Virus record (IMG/VR): IMGVR_UViG_3300016476_001281
Origin: a virus
Lineage: Duplodnaviria; Heunggongvirae; Uroviricota; Caudoviricetes
Length of the DNA stretch: 64,000 bases
Reading direction: 5' to 3' (one strand)
The translations under genes were made by a program, and so were the position numbers. Below are positions 18,296 to 51,315 of the stretch, piece by piece. The notes below the pieces were generated by a model that was given only the letters and a program-made list of their open reading frames with translations, had not been told where the DNA came from and made no database searches. Each line of letters opens with the position of its first letter. The stretch's first letter is position 1.

Positions 18296-18910
18296 ATGAT
18301 AAAAGTAGGACTTTCAGGAAATAGATACTCAGGTAAAACCAGAGTTGCAGACTTATTTAAACAAATAGGTATTCCTGTATTTGATGCAGATACTATTTTA
18401 AGATTTATACTAAACTACAATTGGGAGTTATTAGGTGAGATTAAAGAAGAATTAGGAAGTGACATCTTCCAAGGCGACTACTTAAATTTCAGAGAAATTA
18501 AAAACCCAAAAGTGTTCAACAAAGTTCTAAAGATGGTTGAACCAGATATTTTTAGATCATATGAAAGGTTCAATAAAAAACAAAATTCAATATACACTAT
18601 TTTCCATTCTTCAATCTTATTTGAAACAGGTTGGTATAAAGATATGGATAAAAACATTAGTGTATTTTCTTCACACACTGATAGAATTAAAAGATGTAAA
18701 AAACTTACAAATATGGGTTTATTGACAATAAATGATTTGTCAAAAACTGAAATGGATCCACTTGATAAAAATGAACTATCTGATTATGTAATACACAACT
18801 ATAATGAAGAAACATCTGCATTTGGTGATACTTTTACACAAACATGTAAAGTAGATCAAAAGATAATTGATATGTACCTATATAATGAAACTACTAAACA
18901 AGTAATATAA
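18296..18910 (+). CDS. P-loop nucleotide kinase (dephospho-CoA kinase CoaE-like)
   Basis: VGLSGNRYSGKTRVADLF...IPVFDADTI matches the CoaE pattern GLTGGIGSGKS...V.DAD. Preceded by TATATTTG, a TAnnTTTG -7 box, at about 18266. Confidence 0.5.
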   Translation: MIKVGLSGNRYSGKTRVADLFKQIGIPVFDADTILRFILNYNWELLGEIKEELGSDIFQGDYLNFREIKNPKVFNKVLKMVEPDIFRSYERFNKKQNSIYTIFHSSILFETGWYKDMDKNISVFSSHTDRIKRCKKLTNMGLLTINDLSKTEMDPLDKNELSDYVIHNYNEETSAFGDTFTQTCKVDQKIIDMYLYNETTKQVI

Positions 18911-19326
18911 TGAGAAAAGTAAGATTGAAATGTATTCAAAAGACAACAAATAAATTGACTTTTGTGAAATTACTGAAAGAAGTAACTGGTTATGGCTTGA
19001 AAGAATCAAAAGATATTGCAGATAATTTTGATTATGACATTAATAGAATTGTTGAGTTTGAAATATCATCAGATGTAAGTATTGAACAATTTAGAAAAGA
19101 CTTAAAGAATGTTGGTGGTGAATATGTAGTAAATGGTGGTCTTGTATTTGAAAGAGAATACAAAATACTAACATTAGGATTAGGAGAAAAAGAAGATTAT
19201 GTTGATTTTATATCAGAGAATTTAAACTTCTTTGATAATAAAGAAGATACAATTAAATTTATACTTAGTAAGTTAGAAAAAGAAGAACTATTAGAATTAA
19301 TAAAAAAATTAGATTATACATCATAA
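18910..19326 (+). CDS. ribosomal protein bL12 (L7/L12) C-terminal-domain-like protein
   Basis: KLTFVKLLKEVTGYGLKESKDIADN closely parallels the L7/L12 C-terminal domain [24 protein letters not shown]. Confidence 0.55.
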   Translation: MRKVRLKCIQKTTNKLTFVKLLKEVTGYGLKESKDIADNFDYDINRIVEFEISSDVSIEQFRKDLKNVGGEYVVNGGLVFEREYKILTLGLGEKEDYVDFISENLNFFDNKEDTIKFILSKLEKEELLELIKKLDYTS

Positions 19327-19329
19327 ATT

Positions 19330-19728
19330 ATGGCAAATGCACATGTACATTCTAAATCATCTGCAAGGAGATTTGGAGGACAATTAGAAGATTATTTAGA
19401 AATCCATATTAAAATGGATTGTTCAAAAGCTTATATCTCAGATAATAGACATAGAGCTTTAACTCATAATGCCTTTTGGATTCATGAAGTTATGATACCT
19501 ATTTTTGGGTACACTATTACTAACTCTGATGGAAAAGAAGTATCTGTGAAAGATATTTGTGAAATTCACATTCTTGAAGATTTTGGAATGAGATTTATTC
19601 CAACTGCACAAGATTATCTTGAACATATGGATTTTAAAGATTGGATGCAAAATGGTATTAAAGATTGTCCAGCATCATTCAAGAAACTAAAAGAAAAAGG
19701 TAATATTAAAAAAACAATGTTAGACTAA
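19330..19728 (+). CDS. hypothetical protein
   Basis: 132-aa ORF. Confidence 0.4.
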   Translation: MANAHVHSKSSARRFGGQLEDYLEIHIKMDCSKAYISDNRHRALTHNAFWIHEVMIPIFGYTITNSDGKEVSVKDICEIHILEDFGMRFIPTAQDYLEHMDFKDWMQNGIKDCPASFKKLKEKGNIKKTMLD

Positions 19729-20453
19729 TGATAGTAGTATGTAAAAAAGCAACAATAAAACTAGTCAAAGGGTTAGAATATAATTTAGTAGGATTAGATA
19801 ATGCAGATCCAACTAAAACAGGTTCAGTAAAAATTGAAGGTTTAGGTTGGTATACAGTTAATAACTTTGAAACAACTGATGGTAAACCTTTACCTAAAAT
19901 TGATATTGCCTTAAAAGTAAGTGAAAGAGAAATAATTAGTTTTGATGATTTATCTAAAGGTGATATTTTAATTTGTAAGACTGATAGTTATAAAACCTTA
20001 GTTAAAGGTGGAATGTATAGAATTGAAGAACTATCAAGCAATACTAAACAAATGACAGGTTGGAGTGGTAATTTATACACACATACTGAGAACTATGTTA
20101 AATTTGAAGGTATTACAAGAAAACTAATGTACAATAGTTGGAGATTTGAAAAACTACCTGTTGGTGATGCAAGAGAAATGGCACTTGAACAAGTTCTTTA
20201 TGATACACCTGATAAAGTAACCAAGACAGATTTTAGAAATAAAAGAAAGATTGAACACATTGAAAATAAAGAAAATGTACTAATGTCAATTTTATCTAAA
20301 TCTATATTAGATGAAAATAGACATAAGTTAAATATTACAGAATGGGCAGTAAGACAATTAGGTAGAAAGATGGATTTAGAAATGGATGATTATTCAGATT
20401 TAATGAATATGAAACTATCAGATATTTTAAAACTAATTGATAATAAAGAATAG
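19728..20453 (+). CDS. hypothetical protein
   Basis: 241-aa ORF. Confidence 0.4.
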   Translation: MIVVCKKATIKLVKGLEYNLVGLDNADPTKTGSVKIEGLGWYTVNNFETTDGKPLPKIDIALKVSEREIISFDDLSKGDILICKTDSYKTLVKGGMYRIEELSSNTKQMTGWSGNLYTHTENYVKFEGITRKLMYNSWRFEKLPVGDAREMALEQVLYDTPDKVTKTDFRNKRKIEHIENKENVLMSILSKSILDENRHKLNITEWAVRQLGRKMDLEMDDYSDLMNMKLSDILKLIDNKE

Positions 20454-20476
20454 AATATAAACATTAATATTAATAT

Positions 20477-20965
20477 ATGAACGTAGACAAATTTGAAAGA
20501 TTGAAACAAAAACAAGCTGAGATTCAGGCATTAAGAAAACAGATGTTGGAAGAATCAAACAAAATTTTTGGTGAGTTAACCAAAGAATTTTTTGATGAAA
20601 ATCCTAAATTGGAATCTTTTGCTTGGACACAATACACCCCATACTTCAATGATGGTGATACTTGTGAGTTCAGTGCAAACACTGATTACATTTATGTAAA
20701 TGGTGAGTACATTGAAGATTGTGATTGGTACCCAAAAACCAATATAACAACTTATGGAAGATGGAATTCTACTTTAAGAGTTTATGAGGGTAGAGTTGAA
20801 GAAGAAAATCCTGACTATGATGAAGATTTGGCAAGGGTAACAGATGAAATTAAGTTATTCTTATCTCATTTTGATGAAGACTTCTTCAAAGAACAATTTG
20901 GTGACCACAACATGGTTACAGTAACAAAAAGTGGTGTTGACACTGATTATTACGAACATGACTAA
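20477..20965 (+). CDS. hypothetical protein
   Basis: 162-aa acidic ORF. Confidence 0.4.
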   Translation: MNVDKFERLKQKQAEIQALRKQMLEESNKIFGELTKEFFDENPKLESFAWTQYTPYFNDGDTCEFSANTDYIYVNGEYIEDCDWYPKTNITTYGRWNSTLRVYEGRVEEENPDYDEDLARVTDEIKLFLSHFDEDFFKEQFGDHNMVTVTKSGVDTDYYEHD

Positions 20966-21021
20966 TTCAACAAAAGAAAATTAACAAAAATTATTAAAAA
21001 CAAAAATTAAAAACAAAAATT

Positions 21022-22926: not shown

Positions 22927-22946
22927 TAATAACTTTTTATAATACT

Positions 22947-23431: not shown

Positions 23432-23435
23432 AAAT

Positions 23436-24241: not shown

Positions 24242-25333
24242 TTAACCCAATGTTAAGAAGATTTTACGTGAACTTCTATCAACTGATAAAACTTTCACTC
24301 TAATATCTTGTCCAGATGTAAACTTCTTACCAAGTTTCTCCATTTCTGATGTGTGGATTAATCCAACTGTTTCATCATCTAAGATAACTAAAGTACCAAA
24401 TTGTTTAACATCTTTCACTCTACCTTCAATCAACTGACCATTTTTGATAGTGTCCCACAAAGTTTCTCTCAAAACTTGAGTAAGGATAATCTTATCTTTA
24501 ATGATTTCTTTGATGTAGAACTCAATTTCTTGTCCTGGTTTAATTTCAGTTATTCTGTTTTGCCACTCTTCTGTTACATTAGCTTTGTGGATCATACCAG
24601 TTAAACATTCATTAAACTCAACAAAGATACCAAATGGTGTAGTACCAGTAACTCTACCAGAGTAAAGAGTATTGAACTCAAGATTCCCAATTTCATCAGG
24701 AATTAAACTTTGTAGATACTTTCTACGACTTACAATGTAAGTTCCTTCATGTTCAGAGAATGACTCAACCATTACTTGGAAAGTGTCTCCAATAATAGAA
24801 CTTGGGTCATAAAGTTTGTTGATACCAGCTAAGGTATTAGGCATAAATGCTGGAAGAGTAACTCCACCATTTGTCAACTCTACATCGTAACCTGCAGGGT
24901 TTAAAGCTCTAATATAAGCAGTTACTGATTCTCCTTCCTCTAAAGACTTCATATTTTCATGAGCAATAGATTCATACAAAGAAGCAATACTTCCTTTGAT
25001 AAAGTAGGTACTTTGAACTACCTCTGTGATTAACAAATCAACCTCATCTCCAATTTCAATAGAGTTAAGATATTTTGCTTCATTTGGTTTGTTCTCAATA
25101 CGAACATCATCTTTGTAACCAACAACACTGAACACAAATTGATTTGACATCATACCAATATAGGTAGATCTCACTACTGAACCAGCAGTAGGTGTCTCTA
25201 TTTGAATAGAGTCATAAAGTGAATCAAGGTATTTATCTTGTAACTTTTGTCCTCTTTTATATGTATCATCTGCATATAAAAGGTCAAAGTCTGGGTTACC
25301 TAATTCTGGGTTTAAAATTTCATTTTGCGTCAT
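24242..25333 (-). CDS. multi-S1-domain RNA-binding protein (ribosomal protein bS1-like)
   Basis: Repeated S1 folds are present, for example GRVKDVKQFGTLVILDDETVGLIHTSEM...VKVLSVDRSSRKIFLTLG and GRVTGTTPFGIFVEFNECLTGMIHKANV. Confidence 0.55.
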   Translation of the reverse strand: MTQNEILNPELGNPDFDLLYADDTYKRGQKLQDKYLDSLYDSIQIETPTAGSVVRSTYIGMMSNQFVFSVVGYKDDVRIENKPNEAKYLNSIEIGDEVDLLITEVVQSTYFIKGSIASLYESIAHENMKSLEEGESVTAYIRALNPAGYDVELTNGGVTLPAFMPNTLAGINKLYDPSSIIGDTFQVMVESFSEHEGTYIVSRRKYLQSLIPDEIGNLEFNTLYSGRVTGTTPFGIFVEFNECLTGMIHKANVTEEWQNRITEIKPGQEIEFYIKEIIKDKIILTQVLRETLWDTIKNGQLIEGRVKDVKQFGTLVILDDETVGLIHTSEMEKLGKKFTSGQDIRVKVLSVDRSSRKIFLTLG

Positions 25334-40891: not shown

Positions 40892-40892
40892 C

Positions 40893-41075
40893 ATGACAAA
40901 TTATATACCAATTATAGGATTATCTATTTTAGCAATAGGTGCTTTATATAAAGTTATAACTAAAAAAGATGTGACTGAAAGTAAAAAAGAAACAAAGAGT
41001 TCTTATAAACAAACATCTGGTAGATTTATAAATGATCATATGGCAGATGTAATGAACATTAAAAAGAAAAAATAA
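40893..41075 (+). CDS. small membrane protein
   Basis: Single TM helix (IPIIGLSILAIGALYKVI). Confidence 0.3.
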   Translation: MTNYIPIIGLSILAIGALYKVITKKDVTESKKETKSSYKQTSGRFINDHMADVMNIKKKK

Positions 41076-42331: not shown

Positions 42332-42362
42332 TGAATATAAACAAAAATATAAATATAAAATT

Positions 42363-42686
42363 ATGGCAACAAATGCAGTAGAATTAACAACTTCAACTTA
42401 TGGAGAATTTATCAAAAATGAATATGTATTAGTTGATGTTTGGGCACCTTGGTGCGGTCCATGCAGACAAATTTCACCAATTGTGGATCAAATCTCTTTA
42501 GAGTTTATGGAACAATTACAAGTTGGTAAATTAAATGCAGATGAAAACAGAGACATTCTTGTTGAATTAGGTGTTAGAAATATCCCAACATTATTACTTT
42601 TCAAAAATGGAGAAGTTATTGAAAGAAGTGTTGGTATGACAACTAAAGAAAAATTAGCTGAATTGATTAACACTCACTTAAACTAA
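42363..42686 (+). CDS. trxA: thioredoxin
   Basis: Active site WAPWCGPCRQI with a thioredoxin-like length of 107 aa. Confidence 0.85.
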   Translation: MATNAVELTTSTYGEFIKNEYVLVDVWAPWCGPCRQISPIVDQISLEFMEQLQVGKLNADENRDILVELGVRNIPTLLLFKNGEVIERSVGMTTKEKLAELINTHLN

Positions 42687-42687
42687 T

Positions 42688-43188
42688 TTGATGGAACCAA
42701 CAGAATATTTATTTGAACTAATTAATAAATCAAATATATCTCTATTAGGTTACACATTTAAAGAAGAAAGAATTAAAGATGAAATTATTTCTAAAGTTTC
42801 TCATATTGAGTTACCAGAAATAAATTCATCTTTTTCTATGCTTTCTTATATAAGAGATTCTAAAATTGATACAATATTAGATAATAAAACTGAAACACCA
42901 ACTCATTTTTTATTAGACATCAATAATTTTATGGTAGGTAGAGGTGAAATAAGTAGAGCTAATGTAATAAATAATGCACTAAGAGAAATTGCTATGCAAT
43001 TAATAGATACTAATTTTAAACTATTAATCACTTGTCCAATATACAATAATGCAGGTAATGATGAATACAATTTCAGTGGTGGTAATACAGGATTATATAT
43101 GGCTGACTTTGTGGGAATAATTAGAGAAGATAGAGTAAGAATAATGAAAAACCGTTATGGTATGCATCAAATAGATATAAAATTATAA
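42688..43188 (+). CDS. hypothetical protein
   Basis: 166-aa ORF. Confidence 0.4.
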   Translation: MMEPTEYLFELINKSNISLLGYTFKEERIKDEIISKVSHIELPEINSSFSMLSYIRDSKIDTILDNKTETPTHFLLDINNFMVGRGEISRANVINNALREIAMQLIDTNFKLLITCPIYNNAGNDEYNFSGGNTGLYMADFVGIIREDRVRIMKNRYGMHQIDIKL

Positions 43189-44256
43189 TATTTCTTTTTT
43201 TAAAATACTTTCTATATTATTAATATCCTTATAATTTATTTCAACTAACTTTATATTATTTAATTTACAATACTCTCTTTTGATATTATCTCTTTTAATA
43301 ATTTCATCAAATTCATTTACACCACCAAAACAATCTACTGGTTCATAATGTTGTCTACCATTAAACTCTATACAAGTATTATAATCAATAAGATAAAAAT
43401 CAAAAGGAAGTTTATTTTTATAAACACATCCTATAAATTTTTTCTGTGATATGAATTTTATATTATTTTCTATTAGAAATTTTCTAACTTTTATCTCACC
43501 TTTACTTTCCCTACATATTGGACAACCCGAACCTGAGAAATGATTAGTTGGTTTTTGTTCAAAAACTCCATGTTTTTTACATATTATTTTTATTGGTATA
43601 TTAAATTTTTTATAATCAGATAAAGAATAATCATATTTATTATTATGAATATCATTTGATTTTTTTTCAAAATCATCAAAATTAAAAATTCTACCACCAC
43701 ATTTTTGACAACCTGAACCACTCAAATGGTTCATAACTTTTTGACTAAATTTACCATGTTTACTACACTCAATATCAATATAGTCACTATATAAATATTT
43801 ATCTCTATCTAAATTATATTTATATCTATCTTTATGTTTGGCCTTAAATATCTTCAATAATTTATCTTTACTACTAAATTTACCACCACATTTTGGACAA
43901 CCCAATCCTCTTAAATGACCTCCTGCATTTTGTTCAAAAATTCCATGTTTTCTACATATTATTTTTACCTTATCTCTATTTCTCTCATAATTGACTAATG
44001 AATAATCATATTTATCATTGTGTATTATTTTTGACCTTTTTATAAATTCATCATTTGTCAAAGATTTTTTACCCTTTGTACATTTTGTACAACCACCACC
44101 TCTTTTATGATGGTGTGGAGTTTGACTAAAAATTCCATGTTTTCTACATATAATATTAACTTTTGTTGTATTATTTATATAGTTAACTAATGAGTAATCA
44201 TATAAATCATCATGCACTTTCTTAAATTGTTCAATAACTTTTTCATTACTATTCAT
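43183..44256 (-). CDS. putative homing/nicking endonuclease: four Zn-ribbon repeat modules plus a C-terminal Vsr/DUF559-like (PD-(D/E)xK) domain
   Basis: Four repeats of about 50 aa of the form KYDYSL.NY....IIC.KHG.F.Q....H..G.GC.KC. The C-terminus carries IEFNGRQHY...KRDNIKREYC...IKLVEI, resembling the Vsr-like endonuclease fold. Confidence 0.45.
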   Translation of the reverse strand: MNSNEKVIEQFKKVHDDLYDYSLVNYINNTTKVNIICRKHGIFSQTPHHHKRGGGCTKCTKGKKSLTNDEFIKRSKIIHNDKYDYSLVNYERNRDKVKIICRKHGIFEQNAGGHLRGLGCPKCGGKFSSKDKLLKIFKAKHKDRYKYNLDRDKYLYSDYIDIECSKHGKFSQKVMNHLSGSGCQKCGGRIFNFDDFEKKSNDIHNNKYDYSLSDYKKFNIPIKIICKKHGVFEQKPTNHFSGSGCPICRESKGEIKVRKFLIENNIKFISQKKFIGCVYKNKLPFDFYLIDYNTCIEFNGRQHYEPVDCFGGVNEFDEIIKRDNIKREYCKLNNIKLVEINYKDINNIESILKKEIL

Positions 44257-44284
44257 ATAATCTATATATAAAAAATAATTAATT

Positions 44285-44719
44285 ATGATAATAAGTAATA
44301 AAAAGGCATACTATTCATATAATATACTTGAGGAATTTGAAGCCGGTGTTGTATTGGTTGGTAGTGAAGTAAAATCAATCAGGATGGGTAATGTTACTTT
44401 AGCAGATTCTTTCATTTATTTAAAAGATGGTGAAGTATGGTTAAAGAATATGAATGTTGCAAGATATAAGTCTTCACATCCATTAACTAAACATGATGAG
44501 AACAGAGATAAGAAATTACTTTTAAATAGAAAGGAAATCAATAGAATAGAAAGAAAATTACAAGATAAAGGAACAACTGCTATACCTTTAAGTATTTTTT
44601 TAAAAAAGAATAGAATTAAGATTAAAATTGGTGTAGCAACTGGGAAAAAACTTTATGATAAAAGAAATTCTATAAAGGAGAAAGACCTAAGAAGAGAACA
44701 ACAAAGAAATATAGCTTAA
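44285..44719 (+). CDS. smpB: SsrA-binding protein SmpB
   Basis: KKAYYSYNILEEFEAGVVLVGSEVKSIRMGNVTLADSFIYLKDGEVWLKNMNVARYK...DKKLLLNRKEI aligns with the conserved SmpB core. Confidence 0.8.
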   Translation: MIISNKKAYYSYNILEEFEAGVVLVGSEVKSIRMGNVTLADSFIYLKDGEVWLKNMNVARYKSSHPLTKHDENRDKKLLLNRKEINRIERKLQDKGTTAIPLSIFLKKNRIKIKIGVATGKKLYDKRNSIKEKDLRREQQRNIA

Positions 44720-45069
44720 TGAAAAATAACATAGAAGACTTTTTTGATAAACTACATAGTTCAGGTAGTGAAGAAGAAGTAATAGAAAACTTAAAAAGGA
44801 TTATCAAAAGTTTCAATGTATCTACATACAAAGAAAAACTTATGAGTAATCCTTATTTTAGTTTATTGATAAATGAAATCAAAGGTGATATATTATTTGA
44901 GATAGGTTTAATCAGAGATAATATAGAAAGTGAAATAAGAGGTATAGATGATGCATTAAGTAAACCAATTAGTGTAAATGATTTTAACAGACTAAAAGAC
45001 TTAAAAAGGGAATGTATGGGTTTGCTTTATGAGATAAATGATAGAATTAATGATTTAATATTACTTTAA
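44719..45069 (+). CDS. hypothetical protein
   Basis: 116-aa ORF. Confidence 0.4.
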   Translation: MKNNIEDFFDKLHSSGSEEEVIENLKRIIKSFNVSTYKEKLMSNPYFSLLINEIKGDILFEIGLIRDNIESEIRGIDDALSKPISVNDFNRLKDLKRECMGLLYEINDRINDLILL

Positions 45070-46662
45070 CATACTATTAATAAATCTCTCAATTATATCT
45101 AACTTTTCCATTGTTTCATCATATTCTTCCTCTACACCATCACAATAACTAATATATTTTTTTATACCACCAGTTTCAAAATTACCTAAAATATCTTGAT
45201 AACAAGTAGATAATTTATTTTTAGAATCAAACATAAAGTTAAGTATGGTGTCAAGTTTATATCTAATACCTAATAAATCATGTATATTTTCAATATCAGT
45301 ATTAAGAATATAATTATTAATATTTTCTCCTATTTTTAATACTCTTTGTACAATAGCTATAAGTTTCTCATCACCTGAGTTAAGTACAGCATCTAAATTT
45401 TCTTTATATATTTTAGTATATTGATTAGAAGATTTTTTATAATTACTAAATTCTGATATAACTCTATTAAAATAATATTCTTGATCATATTCAGGTTCAG
45501 TAATAAGACAATATATAGGTTCAATAATATTAGTTAATGCACTTGCATTATTACGAGAGTACATATGAATTAAAATAAATTTATGACAATTTATACTATT
45601 TACTAAATTACCTAATTTAGAGAAGTCAATTGTTTCTTTTTCTATTCCAAATTTATTAATCAATTTACTCATATAATTGTTAATATTAATCTGTTTTATA
45701 TCATAATCTGACATAAGAGCAGTTGCACCTTTTCTTGCACCCTCTCTACTTCTTTTAATACTATAAGTATCAGGAATAGAAAGTAATCTGTCTAAATAAA
45801 GAATAATTGCAAAATCTGAATCTTTAATAACATCTTTAATACTAAATTGATTATGAAGATTCCAATCTATAACATCACCATCATTATTCATAGGTTTATT
45901 ATAATCTGCTAAATTAGGTCTGTGTTTAACATCATCAGCTTTATTTTCTTGTCTTAATTCCTGTTTATCCTTAATATAAAGATGTAATTTAAAATGGTCT
46001 CCATCTGCTTCAAAGTTATTACTGATAATACGTCCTAATCTAAAATTATATGAATAATTATTAGCAAAATCAGGTCTATTATCAGGTGAAACACTATCAC
46101 TTTTATAATCATTATAAATAAAAATTGCATCATTATCAACAAATATCTGACCTTTAGCTATTCTTCTTTCCTTTGAACTTTTATCACCTAAGGTACACAA
46201 TACTGTATCACCTGTTTTTAATTTCATATAATCCAACACTGATACTAACTTACCTTTTGTTATACCCAATTCATCTTTAATATACTCTAATTGTTCTTCA
46301 TTAAAATCAGAATTTTTAGTAGAGTAGTCATTTTTTAATGGTATATAAGGTGTTCTTAAATCACTTACTGCAGTTTTACCTAAAAATCCTTTTTCAAGAG
46401 AAAACCAAAATTTAATACAATAAATATCAAGTCTATTATTAATAGGTTTAGTATTCTTAACTTTAATTGCCTTTGAGGTCTTATAATACTTTATATCATC
46501 TTCACTAATCTTTGAGATAGGGAAGTCATAATCTTTCATTAGCTTTTTTAATTCATTAGAAAAACTATTGGCACTATACTGGTCTACATTTTTTGTTAAG
46601 AACTTAATTGCACTTGTAATCACTTGTGATTCATATGCCTCAAACAATTTAATATATTTCAT
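45061..46662 (-). CDS. hypothetical protein
   Basis: 533-aa ORF. Confidence 0.4.
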   Translation of the reverse strand: MKYIKLFEAYESQVITSAIKFLTKNVDQYSANSFSNELKKLMKDYDFPISKISEDDIKYYKTSKAIKVKNTKPINNRLDIYCIKFWFSLEKGFLGKTAVSDLRTPYIPLKNDYSTKNSDFNEEQLEYIKDELGITKGKLVSVLDYMKLKTGDTVLCTLGDKSSKERRIAKGQIFVDNDAIFIYNDYKSDSVSPDNRPDFANNYSYNFRLGRIISNNFEADGDHFKLHLYIKDKQELRQENKADDVKHRPNLADYNKPMNNDGDVIDWNLHNQFSIKDVIKDSDFAIILYLDRLLSIPDTYSIKRSREGARKGATALMSDYDIKQININNYMSKLINKFGIEKETIDFSKLGNLVNSINCHKFILIHMYSRNNASALTNIIEPIYCLITEPEYDQEYYFNRVISEFSNYKKSSNQYTKIYKENLDAVLNSGDEKLIAIVQRVLKIGENINNYILNTDIENIHDLLGIRYKLDTILNFMFDSKNKLSTCYQDILGNFETGGIKKYISYCDGVEEEYDETMEKLDIIERFINSMLK

Positions 46663-46980
46663 AACATATATATTAAAATAATTTTTTCAAATTAAAACTT
46701 TTTAGTATATTTGCATAACAATAATGAGTTACTAAGGTTGACAACATAGAATAAATTAAAAAGTCACATAATCTTAGTAATGTTTATGGTAGTAAGTAGC
46801 TAACAAATAAGTTAACATCTTTGATAAAATTAGTGAACTACCTTGTATTTATAATATATGAAAAAGTAAAGATGTTAGTATTGAAATTGTGATGGTGATA
46901 GATACTACAATTATTTATGACAAATAGTATAAGTTATTAGAATATAGAGAATAACTTATCAAAATTAAAACCAACACTAT

Positions 46981-47133
46981 GAAGAAATAAACTGCGCAGA
47001 ATGGTAACACTGCGAAACCAAGGACACAAATCCATTAAAAGGTAATCCCAAGTGATTAGATCATAAAAGTTAAGGTTAGGCTCTCGGATTCCGGCCATAC
47101 TTAACAGGCGTTCCACCCTCTTCATATTTTTTT
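46981..47133. ncRNA. candidate structured non-coding RNA of unknown class (GC-richer island in a 530-nt intergenic gap)
   Basis: Nested helices include CGCAG...CTGCG, GTTAAG...CTTAAC (6 bp) enclosing GGC...GCC, and GGA-cacaaa-TCC. The segment ends in a T-run. The only ORF here uses GC-rich codons (cgc, ctg, gcc, cga) that are atypical for this genome. Confidence 0.35.
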
Positions 47134-47164
47134 AGAAAAATTAGGTAGATTAAAATAATAGCTG

Positions 47165-47172
47165 TACTTTTG
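47165..47172 (+). promoter_or_regulatory. Bacteroidetes -7 box TACTTTTG upstream of the yqeY-like gene
   Basis: Matches TAnnTTTG about 20 nt before the ATG at 47193. Confidence 0.4.
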
Positions 47173-47192
47173 CAGTATAAAAATTAGAAATT

Positions 47193-47597
47193 ATGAATTT
47201 AAAAGAAAAAATTAGCAAAGACTACATGACTGCATTTAAAGAAAAAAATACAGTTGTAAAAAACTTACTTTCAGTTGTAAAAGGTGAAATCCAAACTATT
47301 GAAAAAAATACTGGTGTTGATTGTCTTTCTGATGCAGAGGTAATCAAAATCCTTAATAAAACTGCAAAATCTTTAAATGAAGTTATTGCAACAAGTGGTG
47401 ATGAAGAATCTAAATTACAATTAACAATTGTAGAAGCATTACTTCCAGCTTCTTTAACAAGAGAAGATATTGTTGCTAAAGTAAATGAAATTGTAGCATC
47501 TGGTGTAACTAATGTTGGTGGTATTATGAAAGAATTTGCAACTTTACAAGTTGATAGAAAAGTAGTATCAGAAGTTATCAAAGAAGTATTAGCATAA
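47193..47597 (+). CDS. yqeY: GatB/YqeY-domain protein
   Basis: The whole 134-aa protein parallels the YqeY family: MNLKEKISKDYMTAFKEKN...LSDAEVIKILNK...EALLPASLTREDIVAKVNEIVASG...MKEFATLQVDRKVVSEVIKEVL. Confidence 0.7.
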   Translation: MNLKEKISKDYMTAFKEKNTVVKNLLSVVKGEIQTIEKNTGVDCLSDAEVIKILNKTAKSLNEVIATSGDEESKLQLTIVEALLPASLTREDIVAKVNEIVASGVTNVGGIMKEFATLQVDRKVVSEVIKEVLA

Positions 47598-47599
47598 TT

Positions 47600-47890
47600 A
47601 TGGTAAGTATAAAAGAGGTTAGTTTTTATGATTTACTAATAAATAGTATTAAAGATTTAAAAGGTTATACTTTTATTGAAATTAAAGAAGATGCTGATGC
47701 ATCTGCACTTATAGTAAATTATCCCACAAAAGAAGAATTTGAGGTTGATTTCATATTCAATGTAAATGGAGCAACTCCAAGAGTTAAAAATGATAATTAT
47801 GAATATCTGATTGATGGAGAATATGAATACATAGACTTCAATAATGTTTACTTTTTTAAAGATGGTAAATCTACAATATCAGGTTGGTAA
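47600..47890 (+). CDS. hypothetical protein
   Basis: 96-aa ORF. Confidence 0.4.
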   Translation: MVSIKEVSFYDLLINSIKDLKGYTFIEIKEDADASALIVNYPTKEEFEVDFIFNVNGATPRVKNDNYEYLIDGEYEYIDFNNVYFFKDGKSTISGW

Positions 47891-47910
47891 TAAAATAAAA
47901 ATAAAAAATT

Positions 47911-48396
47911 ATGTATATAGTTTGGAGAGAACCATTCAAAAACTCTTTCTCTGAGACACAAGGTGATGGTTACTTTGTGTCTTATAGAGATAAGTGTTCT
48001 GATAACTATTCAAAGAATTGGTATGATGCTAAAAAGTATAAAACTATAGTTCCTGCAATGACAAGACTTGGTTTAACTTGTCCAAAAGATCTAACATCTT
48101 TAGAACACTTTTTTAGAATAAACAAAATAGATCAAACATCATACAATAGAGATAAAGTTTTATCTGACATATTAGATACTGAAAATGAAGTAAGTATTAA
48201 TTTTAGTAAAGGTAGAATTGATAAGATTGATGATAATGGATTTATCAGTAGTGCTGATGAAGATATTTTAGAATATCTTAATAAGATAATCAATACTAAT
48301 CTAAAAAAGAAAGTAAAAATAAAACTTTGTGATTTAGAAAGAAGTTATCAAGAACCTAAAAAAAGTGGAGTTGATACTTGGGAAGGATTTTATTAA
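47911..48396 (+). CDS. hypothetical protein
   Basis: 161-aa ORF. Confidence 0.4.
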   Translation: MYIVWREPFKNSFSETQGDGYFVSYRDKCSDNYSKNWYDAKKYKTIVPAMTRLGLTCPKDLTSLEHFFRINKIDQTSYNRDKVLSDILDTENEVSINFSKGRIDKIDDNGFISSADEDILEYLNKIINTNLKKKVKIKLCDLERSYQEPKKSGVDTWEGFY

Positions 48397-48402
48397 TTGG
48401 CA

Positions 48403-48588
48403 CTAAAAGTTTTAAAGTCTTTCACTTTTGTTGGAAGACCACCTGTGTCAACACCTTTAGTCCATTCATCATTGAATACCCATTTTTTATCTTTGGGTGC
48501 ATTCTTTTTTGATTTGTACTTTTTACGCATTGCAAAAATGTATTTAAGCTGTGATTTTGAACGAACTGGCATAAACTATATATAAAAA
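48403..48588 (-). CDS. small highly basic protein (tentative; nucleic-acid-binding?)
   Basis: Minus-strand reading MPVRSKSQLKYIFAMRKKYKSKKNAPKDKKW... is 61 aa. It is Lys-rich with genome-typical codons. The plus-strand ORF 48397..48585 is hydrophobic and low-complexity, so it is probably spurious. Confidence 0.25.
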
Positions 48589-48673
48589 ATAAAAAACATT
48601 AAAATGGGGTCATTTTTATTAGGGATATTTGTAGGATATATTCTTTGGGGAACTAAAAAAAATTAGAAATATA

Positions 48674-48704
48674 TTTGGTGGATTAAAAACAAGTTGTATC
48701 TTTG
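48674..48704 (+). promoter_or_regulatory. Bacteroidetes-type sigma-A promoter (-33 TTTG / -7 TATCTTTG)
   Basis: TTTG at 48674-48677 and TATCTTTG at 48697-48704 are separated by 19 nt. No long ORF follows, so it may drive the sORF/tRNA region. Confidence 0.4.
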
Positions 48705-48892
48705 TAAAAAATAAAAACAGGACAAGATGGTGTTTACTACCATTATTCAGAAGTTTGTAAACTTTTGAGACTAAAAGAAAAAGAAATAAAAGAAAAATTG
48801 AAAAAAAATTAAAATAAATTTGGTAGATAAGTAAACTTTTTTTACTTTTGTACTATAAAAATAACAAAAAAAACAAAAAGAGAGAAAAAAAC

Positions 48893-48904
48893 TTTAATAT
48901 ATAG
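48893..48904 (+). promoter_or_regulatory. conserved phage box TTTAATATATAG (candidate late promoter)
   Basis: A TTAATATATA(A/G) box found about 8 times in the window, always within 1-21 nt of a start codon. Confidence 0.45.
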
Positions 48905-48909
48905 AAATA

Positions 48910-49011
48910 ATGAGAACAACTTTTAAACATACAAGCTTTAGTAAATCGTTCAAGTGGTTTAGCCACAAGTTCGGATGTATGAGTATGTCTAAAAGTTCTC
49001 AAATGAAATAG
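48910..49011 (+). CDS. small ORF (33 aa, Ser/Lys-rich) in a promoter-sORF-terminator mini-cassette
   Basis: Encodes MRTTFKHTSFSKSFKWFSHKFGCMSMSKSSQMK. It lies between the conserved box and a terminator and is paralogous to the sORF at 50073. Confidence 0.3.
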   Translation: MRTTFKHTSFSKSFKWFSHKFGCMSMSKSSQMK

Positions 49012-49053
49012 GTGTTGATTTAGCTTAGAGAGAATAATAGAAAACATAAACAG

Positions 49054-49090
49054 AAACCCGAACTTAAAACAAAGTTTGGGTTTTTTTATT
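49054..49090 (+). terminator. rho-independent terminator
   Basis: Hairpin CCCGAACTT-aaaacaa-AAGTTTGGG followed by TTTTTTT. Confidence 0.65.
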
Positions 49091-49096
49091 TTACAC

Positions 49097-49169
49097 TCTC
49101 TCGAAGCTCATGTGGACGGGCACTCAGCTTTTAACCGAGGGGTAGTGGGTTCGAGGCCCATCGGGAGAA
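49097..49169 (+). tRNA. tRNA-Lys(UUU), tentative (one mismatch in anticodon stem)
   Basis: Acceptor TCTCTCG/CGGGAGA, T-arm GTGGG-TTCGAGG-CCCAT, anticodon loop CTTTTAA. Confidence 0.5.
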
Positions 49170-49174
49170 CAAAT

Positions 49175-49260
49175 ACAGATTAGCATAATGGTATGCACCA
49201 GGTCTCCAAAACCTTGGCACCTTAGGGTGGTAGGAAAGAGTTCGATTCTCTTAATCTGTG
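49175..49260 (+). tRNA. tRNA-like, 86 nt: Trp-type anticodon loop (CCA) with an extra 4-bp variable-arm hairpin
   Basis: Acceptor ACAGATT/AATCTGT, D-stem GCAT/ATGC, anticodon loop CTCCAAA, T-arm AAGAG-TTCGATT-CTCTT. The extra hairpin is CACC-ttag-GGTG. Confidence 0.4.
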
Positions 49261-49267
49261 CAAAAAA

Positions 49268-49340
<73 letters not shown>

Positions 49341-49350
49341 CAGAAATATG

Positions 49351-49438
49351 GTGTTTGTAACCGGTAAAGGCAGCCGACCAGATTGTGGATCTGGAATGAA
49401 TTAATTTTCTAATGCAGGTTCGAATCCCGTCTTACACC
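49351..49438 (+). tRNA. tRNA-His-like (anticodon arm CCAGA-TTGTGGA-TCTGG, GUG) with ~19-nt insertion; possible pseudo/variant
   Basis: The 3' end GCAGG-TTCGAAT-CCCGT-CTTACAC-C is near-identical to tRNA-His at 49855. The 5' acceptor pairs poorly, and there is an extra AATGAATTAATTTTCTAAT segment. Confidence 0.35.
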
Positions 49439-49444
49439 CAACAA

Positions 49445-49517
49445 GGAGCTGTGGCAGATGTGGTCATTGCGCTGGACTGAAAATCCAGAGGAACGGGATC
49501 GTAACCCGTCGGCTCCA
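49445..49517 (+). tRNA. tRNA-Phe(GAA), variant T-loop
   Basis: Acceptor GGAGCTG/CGGCTCC, anticodon arm CTGGA-CTGAAAA-TCCAG, T-arm ACGGG-ATCGTAA-CCCGT. Confidence 0.6.
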
Positions 49518-49524
49518 CAAATAT

Positions 49525-49596
49525 GCAGATTTAGCTGAGACGGTTTAGCGTAGGAGTGAAGTCCCTAAGAGATCGGTTCGATTCCGATAATCTGCA
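49525..49596 (+). tRNA. tRNA, anticodon loop GTGAAGT (GAA-like; isotype uncertain)
   Basis: Acceptor GCAGATT/AATCTGC (perfect), D-stem GCTG/TAGC, anticodon stem TAGGA/CCCTA with an A-C mismatch, T-arm ATCGG-TTCGATT-CCGAT. Confidence 0.5.
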
Positions 49597-49605
49597 CAAG
49601 TATAT

Positions 49606-49676
49606 ACGTCATTGGTGAAATGGTATCATCCTGGTCTCCAAAACCAGTGTTCCAGGTTCGAGTCCTGGATGGCGTG
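49606..49676 (+). tRNA. tRNA-Trp(CCA)
   Basis: Acceptor ACGTCAT/ATGGCGT, anticodon arm CTGGT-CTCCAAA-ACCAG, T-arm CCAGG-TTCGAGT-CCTGG. Confidence 0.7.
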
Positions 49677-49682
49677 CAATAT

Positions 49683-49767
49683 TCCCTCTTAGCTCAGTTG
49701 GTTTGCATTAGCTTAGAGCACCTGACTTTTAATCAGGGGGTCGTAGGTTCGAATCCTACAGGGGGAA
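49683..49767 (+). tRNA. tRNA-Lys(UUU) with ~12-nt D-loop expansion
   Basis: Acceptor TCCCTCT/AGGGGGA, D region GCTCAGTTGG-tttgcattagct-TAGAGC, anticodon arm CCTGA-CTTTTAA-TCAGG, T-arm GTAGG-TTCGAAT-CCTAC. Confidence 0.5.
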
Positions 49768-49778
49768 CAAATAAATTT

Positions 49779-49852
49779 GACTTCGTAGCTCAGTTGGTAG
49801 TAGCACCTCACTTTTAATGAGGGGGTCGTGGGTTCGAGTCCCACCGGGGTCA
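49779..49852 (+). tRNA. tRNA-Lys(UUU)
   Basis: Acceptor GACTTCG/CGGGGTC, anticodon arm CCTCA-CTTTTAA-TGAGG, T-arm GTGGG-TTCGAGT-CCCAC. It is a tandem paralogue of 49683. Confidence 0.75.
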
Positions 49853-49854
49853 CT

Positions 49855-49928
49855 GTGTAGGTAGCTTAATTGGTCAAAGCACTTGGTTGTGAGCCAAGGG
49901 ATTGCGGGTTCAAGTCCCGTCTTACACC
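49855..49928 (+). tRNA. tRNA-His(GUG)
   Basis: Acceptor GTGTAGG/CTTACAC, D-stem GCTT/AAGC, anticodon arm CTTGG-TTGTGAG-CCAAG, T-arm GCGGG-TTCAAGT-CCCGT, discriminator C. Confidence 0.8.
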
Positions 49929-49934
49929 CAAATT

Positions 49935-50024
49935 AGTCTGATGATATAGTGGCATTATTTGGTCGTCGATCCAGTTTACTGGGGTATCTTCGGCAGAACA
50001 CAGGTTCGATTCCTGTTCAGACTA
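49935..50024 (+). tRNA. tRNA-like, 90 nt; internal fold unresolved (one possible fold has anticodon UUA with a pyrimidine at position 37)
   Basis: Perfect acceptor AGTCTGA/TCAGACT and T-arm ACAGG-TTCGATT-CCTGT. The interior holds a tight hairpin TCCAG-ttta-CTGGG and about 17 extra nt. Confidence 0.4.
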
Positions 50025-50056
50025 CTAAGTAAAAAAGTAAAAACAAAAGAATAAAA

Positions 50057-50070
50057 TTTTAATATATAAG
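50057..50070 (+). promoter_or_regulatory. conserved phage box TTTTAATATATAAG (candidate late promoter)
   Basis: Same box as 48893, 50435 and 22987. It ends 2 nt before the ATG at 50073. Confidence 0.45.
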
Positions 50071-50072
50071 TT

Positions 50073-50150
50073 ATGAAAACAATTATAAGTACATCGTCAA
50101 GTTCTTCAAGTCGCTCAAGTAAATTGAGGGAGGTTCTTGTGTATTCATAA
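50073..50150 (+). CDS. small ORF (25 aa, Ser-rich) in the second promoter-sORF-terminator mini-cassette
   Basis: Encodes MKTIISTSSSSSSRSSKLREVLVYS. The cassette architecture is paralogous to that at 48910. Confidence 0.3.
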   Translation: MKTIISTSSSSSSRSSKLREVLVYS

Positions 50151-50173
50151 TTTTTTAAGTAAAAAGTTATTTG

Positions 50174-50209
50174 AAACCCTTGAACCAAAAGTTCAAGGGT
50201 TTTTTTTAT
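50174..50209 (+). terminator. rho-independent terminator
   Basis: Hairpin CCCTTGAAC-caaaa-GTTCAAGGG followed by TTTTTTTT. Confidence 0.7.
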
Positions 50210-50210
50210 T

Positions 50211-50296
50211 GGTTCTATAGTTTAATTGGATAAAACACCTGGTTACGACCCAGGAGACAGGAATGCTTAGTGTAGGTTCGAATCCTACTGGAATCA
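50211..50296 (+). tRNA. tRNA-Arg(ACG) with an unusually long (~17-nt) variable region
   Basis: Acceptor GGTTCTA/TGGAATC, D-stem GTTT/AAAC, anticodon arm CCTGG-TTACGAC-CCAGG, T-arm GTAGG-TTCGAAT-CCTAC. Confidence 0.55.
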
Positions 50297-50303
50297 CAAA
50301 TAT

Positions 50304-50386
50304 GGAGGGTACCGTCAAGGTGGCAAACTGGGCTTGAACCCCAGGGGTGCGGGTAACTGCACGGGATTCGATTTCTCTACCCTCTT
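50304..50386 (+). tRNA. tRNA-Ser(UGA), type II
   Basis: Acceptor GGAGGGT/ACCCTCT, anticodon arm CTGGG-CTTGAAC-CCCAG, variable arm TGC-gggtaact-GCA, T-loop TTCGATT. Confidence 0.7.
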
Positions 50387-50434
50387 CAAAAATTATTATT
50401 GTTCAATTTGTTTTAGAACTTTTTCACTTTTTTA

Positions 50435-50448
50435 TTTTAATATATAAG
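50435..50448 (+). promoter_or_regulatory. conserved phage box TTTTAATATATAAG upstream of the HNH endonuclease gene
   Basis: Identical 14-mer to the box at 50057. The ATG follows 18 nt downstream. Confidence 0.45.
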
Positions 50449-50466
50449 TTAAAAATTATTAAAATT

Positions 50467-51135
50467 ATGAAAGAAAAAATTATAGAATTGAGAAAAAGTG
50501 GATTATCATATAATAAAATAGCAGATATACTAGGATGTTCAAAAGGCACAATATCATATCATTGTAGTAATGAAAATTTACAAAGTCCAATTTTAAAAAT
50601 AAGTGATGAATTAATAGAAAATATTAAAAATGATAGCAAATTAAAAATAAAAGAAATTGCCAAAAAGTATAATGTTAGTGAAAGTACTGTAAGTAAATAT
50701 TCATTACCAAAATATTCTAAAAAAGAATATAAAAAATGTAGTAATTGTGGAGAGGTTGCAAAAAATAAATATTGTTCTAATAAGTGTTCACAAGAGTATA
50801 AACACAAAGAAGCATACTATGATTTTTTAAATAATAATCATGATTATTGTAGAGGAAATTATACACCTAAAGCATTTAAAGATTTTTTTATAAAAGAACA
50901 AAATAATAAATGTTCTATATGTGAAATAGAACCTGTTTGGATGGATAAGAAGTTAATATTTGTAATTGATCATATTGATGGTGATGCTTCTAACAATTTA
51001 AGAAGTAATATAAGAATGATATGTCCTAATTGTGATTCACAAACTGATACATTCAAATCAAAAAATAAAAACTCAAAAAGAAGAAATTATTGGAAAGAAA
51101 AAATTATAAATAATTTAGTAAATAATAGTGAATAA
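50467..51135 (+). CDS. HNH homing endonuclease with N-terminal helix-turn-helix, inserted in the tRNA cluster
   Basis: The N-terminus has an HTH (LRKSGLSYNKIADILGCSKGTISYH). The C-terminal HNH motif is CSICE...VIDHIDGDASNNLRSNIRMICPNCDSQTD. The start is the internal ATG after the conserved box. The upstream part of the tracked ORF overlaps tRNA-Ser. Confidence 0.7.
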   Translation: MKEKIIELRKSGLSYNKIADILGCSKGTISYHCSNENLQSPILKISDELIENIKNDSKLKIKEIAKKYNVSESTVSKYSLPKYSKKEYKKCSNCGEVAKNKYCSNKCSQEYKHKEAYYDFLNNNHDYCRGNYTPKAFKDFFIKEQNNKCSICEIEPVWMDKKLIFVIDHIDGDASNNLRSNIRMICPNCDSQTDTFKSKNKNSKRRNYWKEKIINNLVNNSE

Positions 51136-51212
51136 ACCATGATGGTGATTGGGTCTGCCTGGAAAGCAGTACGTACGTTTATATGTATAGGGTTCGATTC
51201 CCTTGTTCACTG
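51127..51212 (+). tRNA. tRNA-Ser(GGA), type II; 5' end overlaps the HNH stop codon
   Basis: Acceptor AGTGAAT/GTTCACT (the AGTGAATAA includes the stop codon), anticodon arm CTGC-CTGGAAA-GCAG, variable arm TAC...GTA, T-arm AGGG-TTCGATT-CCCT. Confidence 0.55.
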
Positions 51213-51221
51213 CTACATAAT

Positions 51222-51307
51222 GGAGAGTAAACCTTGATGGTGAGAGGGTCCGCCTGCTAAGCGTGAGGGTCGGGAAACTGACTGGGGTTCGATTCCCCTG
51301 CTCTCCT
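51222..51307 (+). tRNA. tRNA-Ser(GCU), type II; CCA encoded
   Basis: Acceptor GGAGAGT/GCTCTCC with discriminator T and an encoded CCA. The anticodon loop is CTGCTAA, the same loop sequence as E. coli tRNA-Ser(GCU). Variable arm GTC...GAC, T-loop TTCGATT. Confidence 0.6.
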
Positions 51308-51315
51308 CCAAATGA

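Follow-up and report, generated by a model that had tools for sequence, protein, structure and literature searches.

Why phages carry tRNA genes is still debated, and codon compensation, host shut-off and escape from tRNA-cleaving defences are the explanations under discussion. The 64,000-nucleotide stretch of the Caudoviricetes record IMGVR_UViG_3300016476_001281 that we analysed (the window) raises the question of how such genes are switched on. Its tRNA array is arranged in two operons, A and B, and each operon is preceded by a short open reading frame (ORF), whose codons correspond to the tRNAs that follow, and by an intrinsic terminator. We think it likely, from the sequence of this locus and of its relatives, that the array consists of two transcription attenuator operons controlled by leader peptides and that they function in the manner proposed below. 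An earlier note on this DNA had drawn attention to the translation genes dispersed over the region and had seen in them a means of remodelling host ribosomes or ribosome rescue. The protein toolkit adds little beyond a publication of 2020; it is the attenuator architecture that is new.

The window belongs to a huge phage of ~640 kb from the Mahaphage clade, in which all genomes >634 kb are placed and for which Bacteroidetes hosts are predicted (Al-Shayeb et al. 2020, PMC7162821). Besides the dispersed translation genes that this clade conserves, it holds one tRNA array out of several. No close DNA match was found among GenBank phages, megablast of positions 40000-52000 returning only a 46-nt tRNA match. 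Judged by SmpB, the closest relatives are the uncultured phage genomes LR745206.1 (634,780 bp; 68%) and LR756502.1 (642,428 bp; 60%), followed by the Lak megaphages (~47%). When 39 window ORFs were compared by tblastn with 49-kb stretches of LR745206.1 and LR756502.1, gene order was kept across the whole region in both, and the tRNA array lies at the same place.

The two leaders differ in composition, and each fits its own operon (Table 1). In leader A, 14 of 32 codons specify Phe, Lys, His or Trp (P = 4e-5 against the window's own amino-acid usage), and the leader and its terminator precede tRNAs for Lys, Trp, Phe, His, Phe, Phe, Trp, Lys, Lys and His. Leader B contains ten Ser codons (AGT, TCG, TCA and TCT) with one CGC Arg codon inside the Ser run, so that Ser and Arg take 12/24 where a fraction of 0.11 is expected (P = 4e-6 on the same basis); it stands with its terminator before Arg-ACG and three Ser tRNAs. 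Homologues of leader A were found in 18 loci and those of leader B in 10. The invariant or near-invariant codons of leader A are H7, F10, S11, K12, S13, K15, W16, F17 and S18.

On the + strand of 44-54 kb, no terminator-like sites are stronger than the three that follow leader A, follow leader B and close the array. Between the T-run of terminator A and the first tRNA (Lys) there are 5 nt, tRNA-Arg begins 3-4 nt past the T-run of terminator B, and the range is 3-10 nt in both operons. A promoter would not fit into these gaps, so the tRNAs can be transcribed only by read-through. A scan for sigma-70 promoters was uninformative in DNA so rich in A and T (76 found, 63 expected).

Table 1. Features of the window (coordinates in the window) and leaders of the relative LR745206.1 with the tRNAs that follow them
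Feature	Coordinates	Strand	Details
Bacteroidetes-type promoter motif	48819..48852	+	TTTG-N21-TActTTTGTA; upstream of leader A; kept in L001 and L002
Leader A ORF	48910..49011	+	MRTTFKHTSFSKSFKWFSHKFGCMSMSKSSQMK, then stop; begins MRTTFKHTSFSKSFKWFSHKF
Antiterminator 5' strand A	48967..48974	+	aagttcgg (codons K20-F21-G22); pairs with ccgaactt (49058-49065) in terminator 5' arm
Intrinsic terminator A	49052..49092	+	14-bp stem 49052-49085 and T-run; -16.5 kcal/mol
Operon A	49097..50025	+	ARAGORN, Rfam, alignments with relatives
Lys-UUU	49097-49170	+	operon A
Trp-CCA	49175-49261	+	operon A; long variable arm
Phe-GAA	49268-49341	+	operon A
His-GUG	49351-49439	+	operon A; long variable arm
Phe-GAA	49445-49518	+	operon A
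Phe-GAA	49525-49597	+	operon A
Trp-CCA	49606-49677	+	operon A
Lys-UUU	49683-49768	+	operon A; D-loop insertion
Lys-UUU	49779-49853	+	operon A
His-GUG	49855-49929	+	operon A
tRNA-like element	49935-50025	+	operon A; no clear anticodon
Leader B ORF	50073..50150	+	MKTIISTSSSSSSRSSKLREVLVYS, then stop; begins MKTIISTSSSSSSRSS
Antiterminator 5' strand B	50131..50136	+	segment gaGGTTCtt; pairs with terminator 5' arm (gaacc)
Intrinsic terminator B	50173..50207	+	13-bp stem 50173-50203 and T8; -17.8 kcal/mol
Operon B	50211..51310	+	ARAGORN, Rfam, Pfam
Arg-ACG	50211-50297	+	operon B; long variable arm
Ser-UGA	50304-50387	+	operon B
HTH-HNH endonuclease gene, inserted	50467-51135	+	operon B, between Ser-UGA and Ser-GGA
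Ser-GGA	51127-51213	+	operon B
Ser-GCU	51222-51310	+	operon B
Operon-end terminator	51314-51345	+	terminator scan
Bacteroidetes-type promoter motif	18248-18280		upstream of CoaE/L12-like gene pair; pattern scan
bL12 C-terminal-domain protein, 138 aa	18910..19326	+	PF00542 Ribosomal_L12 29.7 bits (cut-off 25.9), residues 12-71
bS1-like protein, 363 aa, four S1 domains	24242..25333	-	Pfam S1 83 bits and S1_RRP5
Nucleotidyltransferase, 418 aa	41075..42331	+	predicted class II tRNA-nucleotidyltransferase (CCA-adding/poly(A) polymerase) fold
SmpB, full length	44285..44719	+	Pfam 181 bits
YqeY / GatB-C-terminal-like protein	47193..47597	+	PF09424 47.7 bits (cut-off 27); PHROG 1460
LR745206.1 leader MTTNSTHKNFSKSHKWFS...			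His, Phe, (Trp)
LR745206.1 leader MKTKLKYKR			four Lys
LR745206.1 leader MKTINNTSKSSSRSSS...			Arg-ACG, Ser
LR745206.1 leader MNTITNIASYESYYEEG...			Glu and Tyr
LR745206.1 leader MKNLNNISIAVIGNGAGAI...			Ile-UAU, Gly, Met, Gly
LR745206.1 leader MTTMNLNMTMNLTLNVVNITLCNIR...			Asn, Arg-UCU, Leu, Val, Ile, Thr, Met
LR745206.1 leader ...APVNPQPQDQDP...			Pro and Asp
LR745206.1 leader MTTTQQIQQQQINQTD			three Gln

ARAGORN counted 11 tRNAs between 49097 and 51310 at its default settings, Rfam 13 and relaxed ARAGORN 15, all on the + strand; the last figure agrees with the roughly 15 of the earlier note. They comprise Lys-UUU (three), Phe-GAA (three), Trp-CCA (two), His-GUG (two), Arg-ACG, Ser-UGA, Ser-GGA, Ser-GCU and one tRNA-like element. 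The same note had taken the array to be weighted towards codons abundant in an AT-rich genome. The three Lys-UUU and three Phe-GAA genes are present, and the G+C content of the window is 25-32% outside the array, but the weighting itself does not hold, with Trp, His, Arg-ACG and Ser tRNAs in the same set. The tRNA set reflects operon grouping matched to the leader peptides and not an AT-rich codon bias.

To follow the leader and terminator units through related phages, 30 IMG/VR loci were gathered by a YqeY anchor and a leader DNA pattern, and these gave 18 distinct type A and 10 type B units. Terminators of -12 to -19 kcal/mol are present in all of them. In the type A terminator stem, 99.4% of the cells are paired and 9 of the 10 pairs show double (compensatory) changes; the type B stem is 100% paired, with such changes in 6 of 11 pairs. 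For the antiterminator, we folded the part of the transcript that a ribosome on the regulatory codons leaves free, with the polymerase placed just past the terminator 5' arm. The same long hairpin appeared in the minimum-free-energy folds of all units (18/18 in type A, 10/10 in type B), and in it the leader segment pairs with the terminator 5' arm. The type A segment is GTTCGG, at Phe-Gly codons. Both partners of this pairing vary among the phages (aagttcgg/ccgaactt in the window, attcga/tcgaat in locus L002). In locus L030 the leader has changed to gaACTTGGt (peptide E-L-G) together with a terminator arm CCAAGT, and in locus L014 GTTCGG is kept in another reading frame. The type A antiterminator helix is 96.3% paired in an unfitted MAFFT alignment, with compensatory changes in 3 of 6 pairs, a level reached by 0/500 shuffles, and the type B helix is 81% paired, with 3 of 8 pairs compensatory and 2/500 shuffles reaching this level. 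An alignment-free comparison favoured cognate over swapped leader and terminator pairs, at 3/5040 in type A and 170/5040 in type B.

The correspondence between leaders and tRNAs is not confined to the two operons of the window. We took the complete LR745206.1 genome and inspected each of its tRNA runs. Eight leader and hairpin units precede eight tRNA sets (H/F/W, K, R/S, E/Y, I/G, N/L/T/M/V/I/R, P/D and Q), and the true assignment of leaders to tRNA sets is the best of the 40,320 permutations. For Arg and Ile the match reaches the level of the codon: the leader has CGC before Arg-ACG and AGA before Arg-UCU, ATA before Ile-UAU and ATT before Ile-GAU. As a negative control, no leader architecture was found near 19 tRNAs in a 49-kb stretch of Lak-A1. 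The design seems confined to the subclade of the window, since Lak-A1 shows nothing similar. For the ~640-kb phage clade as a whole, we lean towards a genome-wide attenuator regulon in which each tRNA operon would be induced by a shortage of its own aminoacyl-tRNAs.

In the mechanism that we propose, the promoter would drive a short ORF whose codons match the downstream tRNAs, and the intrinsic terminator after this ORF would abut the first of them. When the matching aminoacyl-tRNAs are plentiful, the ribosome would cross the leader and cover or unwind the segment that pairs with the terminator 5' arm; with that segment covered, the terminator would form and the tRNA genes would be off. When they are scarce, be it because the phage translates heavily, the host is shut off or host anticodon nucleases are at work, the ribosome would stall at the regulatory codons upstream of the segment, the antiterminator would form and RNA polymerase would read into the tRNAs. 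The new tRNAs would then relieve the stall, closing the loop. In type B units the stop codon lies about five codons beyond the antiterminator strand, which is textbook attenuator geometry. We infer translation of the leader, control of read-through by stalling, the direction of the switch and the coupling in the presumed Bacteroidota host.

Several observations weigh against this mechanism. In type A the stop codon lies ~35 nt (~12 codons of the ORF) beyond the antiterminator 5' strand; because the ORF extends past that strand, the timing is less clean and needs a lagging ribosome or an inner helix. An inner antiterminator helix with its 5' strand near the stop codon is present in type A units, as gtattg/caatat in most relatives and as tatgt/acata in the subgroup of the window. 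The window's own type B antiterminator is modest (5 bp and mismatches, duplex -8.7 kcal/mol). Antiterminator covariation rests on few divergent sequences and is modest for type B. No curated Rfam leader family was matched, and the matches of the leader B region (50091-50209) to His_leader (24 vs 49 bits) and Phe_leader (25 vs 55 bits) fall well short of the threshold (E = 0.3-0.5). Leader types D and E are less enriched (P = 0.005 to 0.5), and the Lys-only leader of the relatives has a hairpin without a clear T-run. The leaders also share conserved N-termini, MKT or MRT, so that a function as micropeptides is possible, and all of the support is computed from sequence.

The Lys-only leader is in itself a distinct case. 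It occurs as MKTKLKYKR and variants (L001 38136-38200, L002 38580-38650, L010, L021 and L025), and its hairpin, which begins at the stop codon, covaries between phages. As an attenuator it would have to act in another way, such as the ribosome directly occluding the hairpin.

The proposed units resemble the attenuators of amino-acid operons (the trpL, hisL, pheL, thrL, leuL and ilv leaders, and pheM for pheST) in the short ORF rich in regulatory codons, in the intrinsic terminator directly upstream of the regulated genes and in an antiterminator that excludes the terminator and has its 5' strand just past the regulatory codons. They differ from them in that the targets are the sensed tRNAs themselves and not biosynthetic enzymes or synthetases. 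The phage leaders are multi-amino-acid leaders (F/K/H/W or S/R here, up to seven amino acids in relatives) that fit the mix of tRNAs downstream, and they are phage-encoded and recur at nearly every tRNA cluster. A clear 1:2 'anti-antiterminator' helix was not seen in the phage units. T-box riboswitches likewise sense the charging of specific tRNAs and choose between terminator and antiterminator. However, T-boxes are ~200-nt conserved RNAs that bind uncharged tRNA directly and without translation, whereas the phage elements have conserved ORFs instead. A T-box or other known riboswitch upstream of the tRNAs was considered and found no Rfam match.

No description of leader-peptide control of tRNA genes was found in the searchable full-text literature, which leaves subscription-only papers outside its scope. 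A term search of the text of Al-Shayeb et al. 2020 (PMC7162821) returned no mention of attenuation, leaders or terminators. If the mechanism is true, this would be the first case found of classical attenuation governing tRNA genes, with tRNAs controlling their own transcription via the ribosome. Phages would then treat tRNA supply as a regulated quantity, adjusted per amino-acid group, and the switch would provide tRNAs on demand or replace those destroyed by host defences. A textbook mechanism would be extended to tRNA genes, and compact, programmable sensors of tRNA shortage would become available to synthetic biology; the leader and terminator units are modules of ~180 nt, portable to reporters. 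For annotation in this clade, a simple rule follows: odd tRNAs can be identified from the leader peptide upstream of them.

It is also conceivable that the toolkit serves mainly to remodel host ribosomes or ribosome rescue, the S1-like and L12-like proteins replacing or competing with those of the host and SmpB taking over trans-translation, while the tRNAs are constitutive and compensate for AT-rich codon usage; we consider this doubtful as the main explanation. The toolkit proteins that it invokes are real and conserved, and the same ribosome proposal has been made for huge phages (PMC7162821). Pfam profile searches recovered the SmpB, L7/L12 C-terminal-domain, S1 and YqeY families at the places where the earlier note had put them. 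Identity to LR745206.1 and LR756502.1 in tblastn is 36-37% for the L12-like protein, 60-65% for the S1-like protein, 46-51% for the nucleotidyltransferase and 59-62% for YqeY, and SmpB is syntenic too; because the order is conserved in the two closest complete phages, the toolkit is real and selected and not a coincidence. The notion that a combination including SmpB is much less usual did not stand for this clade. Huge phages have been described with ribosomal proteins S1 and L7/L12, SmpB with tmRNA (transfer-messenger RNA), a CCA-adding enzyme and up to 67 tRNAs (PMC7162821), and the nearest relatives of the window are in that size class. The likeness to these phages and to Lak lies in the same clade and the same categories of gene (S1, L7/L12, SmpB, a CCA-adding-type enzyme and many tRNAs), and the difference lies in the leader architecture, which is present in the window's subclade and absent at the tRNAs of Lak-A1.

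Examined singly, the toolkit proteins speak on both sides of the remodelling proposal. The 138-aa protein adopts the L7/L12 C-terminal-domain fold at residues ~2-74 and has four extra helices at residues 77-136 (AF2 model, pLDDT 86.5). Its best Foldseek matches are 1dd3 and 1ctf (probability 0.99, identity 26-30%), and its motif TGYGLKESKDIA resembles the factor-binding helix motif GLKE(A/S)KD of bL12. The fold of the C-terminal factor-binding domain and this helix motif are what it shares with bacterial bL12, and retention of the motif counts in favour of the proposal. In contrast to bacterial bL12, the phage protein has this domain at its N-terminus. Neither the N-terminal dimerisation/L10-binding domain nor the hinge was found by profile, model or Foldseek, and the match to TIGR00855 (27 bits, cut-off 84) covers only model positions 65-123. 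A four-helix extension of ~60 residues, conserved in 93 homologues, replaces the missing N-terminal domain and hinge. Since these are missing, the protein cannot enter the ribosomal stalk canonically; it would act off the stalk or via its novel helical domain. Two other identities were considered for the protein. ClpS was rejected because ClpS folds are only 8-16% identical, against 26-30% for bL12, and because the L12 helix motif is present. A circularly permuted L12 is unsupported, the C-terminal stretch giving a non-significant 2.3 bits and no fold match.

The S1-like protein is collinear over residues 44-361 with residues 15-345 of E. coli bS1, which are its domains 1-4 (E = 2e-25). It is far below the rpsA equivalog level (109 bits, cut-off 577) and has four domains instead of six, which weakens the case for its replacing the host protein. 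Four-domain S1 proteins exist in some bacteria. It would serve initiation independent of the Shine-Dalgarno sequence. SmpB passes both NCBIfam equivalog cut-offs (NF003843, 184.8 > 130; TIGR00086, 174.9 > 119.1) and aligns over residues 2-142 to the A. aeolicus SmpB structure 1p6v, with the C-terminal tail GKKLYDKR included, and this tail is a point in favour of a role in rescue. However, ARAGORN and Rfam found no tmRNA in the window and none over all 634,780 bp of the complete relative LR745206.1. SmpB, if active, must use host tmRNA, as none was found in either, and in this the phages differ from the huge phages with SmpB and tmRNA described before (PMC7162821). The YqeY match spans residues 4-133, corresponding to profile positions 1-143.

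The earlier note had listed a possible CCA-adding-like nucleotidyltransferase as well, and here the support comes from the predicted fold. In Pfam the 418-aa protein gives a sub-threshold match to NTP_transf_6 only (22.3 bits, cut-off 25), with no match to PolyA_pol PF01743, and no PDB sequence match was found. Its AF2 model (pLDDT 79, pTM 0.67) is predicted to match the class II CCA-adding enzymes in fold. The top 12 Foldseek matches are all tRNA nucleotidyltransferases (E = 1.6e-6 to 1.2e-3), with global TM scores of only 0.23-0.30; the best in the PDB are 3wfr, 9kma, 5hc9 and 3h3a (E = 1.6e-6 to 1e-4), and poly(A) polymerase I and TENT5 come after the tRNA nucleotidyltransferases. The catalytic Pol-beta signature GG...DxD (G28, G29, D48 and D50) is invariant across 25 homologues, and there are 830 homologues in all, some of them on contigs of 640-656 kb; the exact protein, like the exact L12-like one, is found on a contig of 141,792 bp. 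Inspection by eye did not reveal the specificity motifs RRD and EDxxR; SFDINCTA resembles (RRD)FTINA. Because RRD and EDxxR were not recognised, 'CCA-adding' describes a resemblance at the level of the fold only. The enzyme would act in repair or maturation of tRNA 3' ends.

The remodelling proposal has further difficulty with the tRNAs. Constitutive compensation for an AT-rich genome does not account for Trp, His and Arg-ACG tRNAs, which do not read AT-rich codons, and the leader and terminator units and their codon match are left unexplained. Remodelling of the ribosome is nevertheless compatible with control of the tRNA operons by attenuation, and the two are not exclusive.

A variant of the attenuation mechanism is that the switch works mainly as a sensor of defence: loss of host tRNAs to anticodon nucleases would induce replacement tRNAs, some of them with insertions in the variable arm that may evade cleavage. 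Phage tRNAs can counter tRNA-targeting defences, and the classic targets of anticodon nucleases are Lys, His, Arg and Asp tRNAs. The array of the window is rich in Lys-UUU, His-GUG and Arg-ACG, and stem-loops in the variable loop are found in three of its tRNAs (Trp, His and Arg) and, with compensatory changes, in long-arm Lys tRNAs of the relatives. However, the leaders of LR745206.1 cover essentially all amino acids, including those whose tRNAs are not known to be nuclease targets. General control of supply fits better for this reason, and a switch devoted mainly to defence seems improbable to us. That the ORFs and hairpins have nothing to do with tRNA control, being chance frames or micropeptides and ordinary terminators, insulators or processing signals with tRNAs made by leaky read-through, is very unlikely: many short ORFs do arise in AT-rich intergenic DNA, the leaders keep some C-terminal residues besides their N-termini, and the variable columns of leader A by codon position (8, 10 and 10) do not favour third positions, but eight leaders match their own tRNA sets better than any other assignment, and for Arg and Ile they do so in the very codons used. 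In addition, leader A keeps invariant just the codons for H, F, S, K and W, covariation links the leader segment to the terminator arm despite changes of frame and amino acid, and such units are missing beside the Lak-A1 tRNAs.

Several tRNAs of the array have unusual structures. The variable-loop insertions of Trp-CCA, His-GUG and Arg-ACG in the window are 13-14 nt long and form small stem-loops, giving class-II-like arms on class I tRNAs, and they are missing from the orthologous tRNAs of the close relatives L005, L007 and L008. In the long-arm Lys-UUU/CUU tRNAs of other relatives (L001 38294-38559; L002 38662-38931), the arm stems differ by compensatory changes (GAG/CTC, GAC/GTC, TACC/GGTA and GGAT/ATCC). 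Normal copies with the same anticodon adjoin the long-arm tRNAs. Nuclease evasion and recognition by a phage enzyme are possibilities for the role of these arms. Mis-charging of Trp, His, Arg and Lys anticodons with Ser through the long arm was considered; by inspection, the discriminator bases of these tRNAs are still typical of the amino acid of the anticodon. The Lys-UUU gene at 49683-49768 has an 11-nt D-loop insertion like a partial duplication of the D-arm, and its Rfam match starts only at 49702; the gene is possibly a copy in decay.

The tRNA-like element at the end of operon A has 91 nt, a 7-bp acceptor stem and a canonical T-arm, with no convincing anticodon arm and no Rfam match at E <= 1. 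It is conserved in L003, L005 and L006, and the ARAGORN call for it varies with the phage between Asp, Leu and undetermined. Its internal hairpin covaries (ccag/ctgg vs ccta/tagg) around a loop of 3-7 nt. A tmRNA-like domain was rejected for this element, which at 91 nt has no G3:U70, no tag-coding capacity and no Rfam match.

Operon B is interrupted by a gene for a helix-turn-helix (HTH) and HNH endonuclease, which is ~70% DNA-identical to the HNH gene of the crAss-like phage cr116_1. The start is likely the ATG at 50467, because the ORF with a GTG start (50347-51135) overlaps tRNA-Ser. In relatives without the insertion, the Ser tRNAs are contiguous. In LR756502.1 (L002 being positions 335000-384000), the tRNA array contains a short ORF of ~245 aa at L002 39240-39980 that resembles a class I synthetase (HIGN and KMSKS; TrpRS/TyrRS-like), and this ORF is absent from the window.

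Upstream of leader A, a second Bacteroidetes-type promoter motif is present at 48674-48706 and precedes the leader A promoter by 145 nt. After it comes a 13-codon ORF, MVFTTIIQKFVNF, within 48674-48770, with no obvious terminator. The motif TTAATATATAAG precedes several start codons by 2-20 nt, among them those of leader B and the HNH gene (50059-50070, 50437-50448 and, on the - strand, 60253-60264), and a variant of it precedes leader A. It is kept at the same places in relatives. Over the whole window the motif is not enriched (8 against 4.9 expected). It could be part of a phage promoter or initiation signal.

The host of the phage is probably a member of the Bacteroidota, as judged from its genes and promoters. 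The best NCBIfam model for the sigma factor at 40253-40891 is a Bacteroidetes extracytoplasmic function (ECF) model, Sig70_bacteroi1, and 5 copies of the Bacteroidetes promoter pattern TTTG-N17-23-TAnnTTTGTA are present in the window where 0.73 would be expected, with 0/100 shuffles reaching 5. A Bacteroidota host agrees with the presence of both. Recoding of stop codons as in Lak phages was rejected, since long ORFs are read in the standard code and there is no suppressor among the 59 tRNAs of LR745206.1.

The genes between the translation genes encode CoaE, an SPFH protein, an NAD-dependent DNA ligase, the ECF sigma factor, a thioredoxin and large proteins without Pfam matches. Because they are unrelated to translation, 'dispersed' was an accurate description of the toolkit. 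The order of the ECF-type sigma gene and the nucleotidyltransferase gene (window 40253-42331) is kept in L001 and L002, and a 66-aa ORF (40875-41075) separates the two in the window. Adjoining SmpB on the - strand (43183-44256) is a gene for a 357-aa protein with four zinc-ribbon repeats of the form KHGxFxQ...GxGCxxC (DUF4379/DUF723). It is probably a mobile, homing-endonuclease-like insertion, since L001 and L002 are without a counterpart. Two other structured RNAs were seen in LR745206.1, namely a GOLLD RNA (RF02032, 287 bits) between tRNA genes at 420,875-421,280 (L041 20875-21280) and a DUF805b RNA motif at 17,639-17,673.

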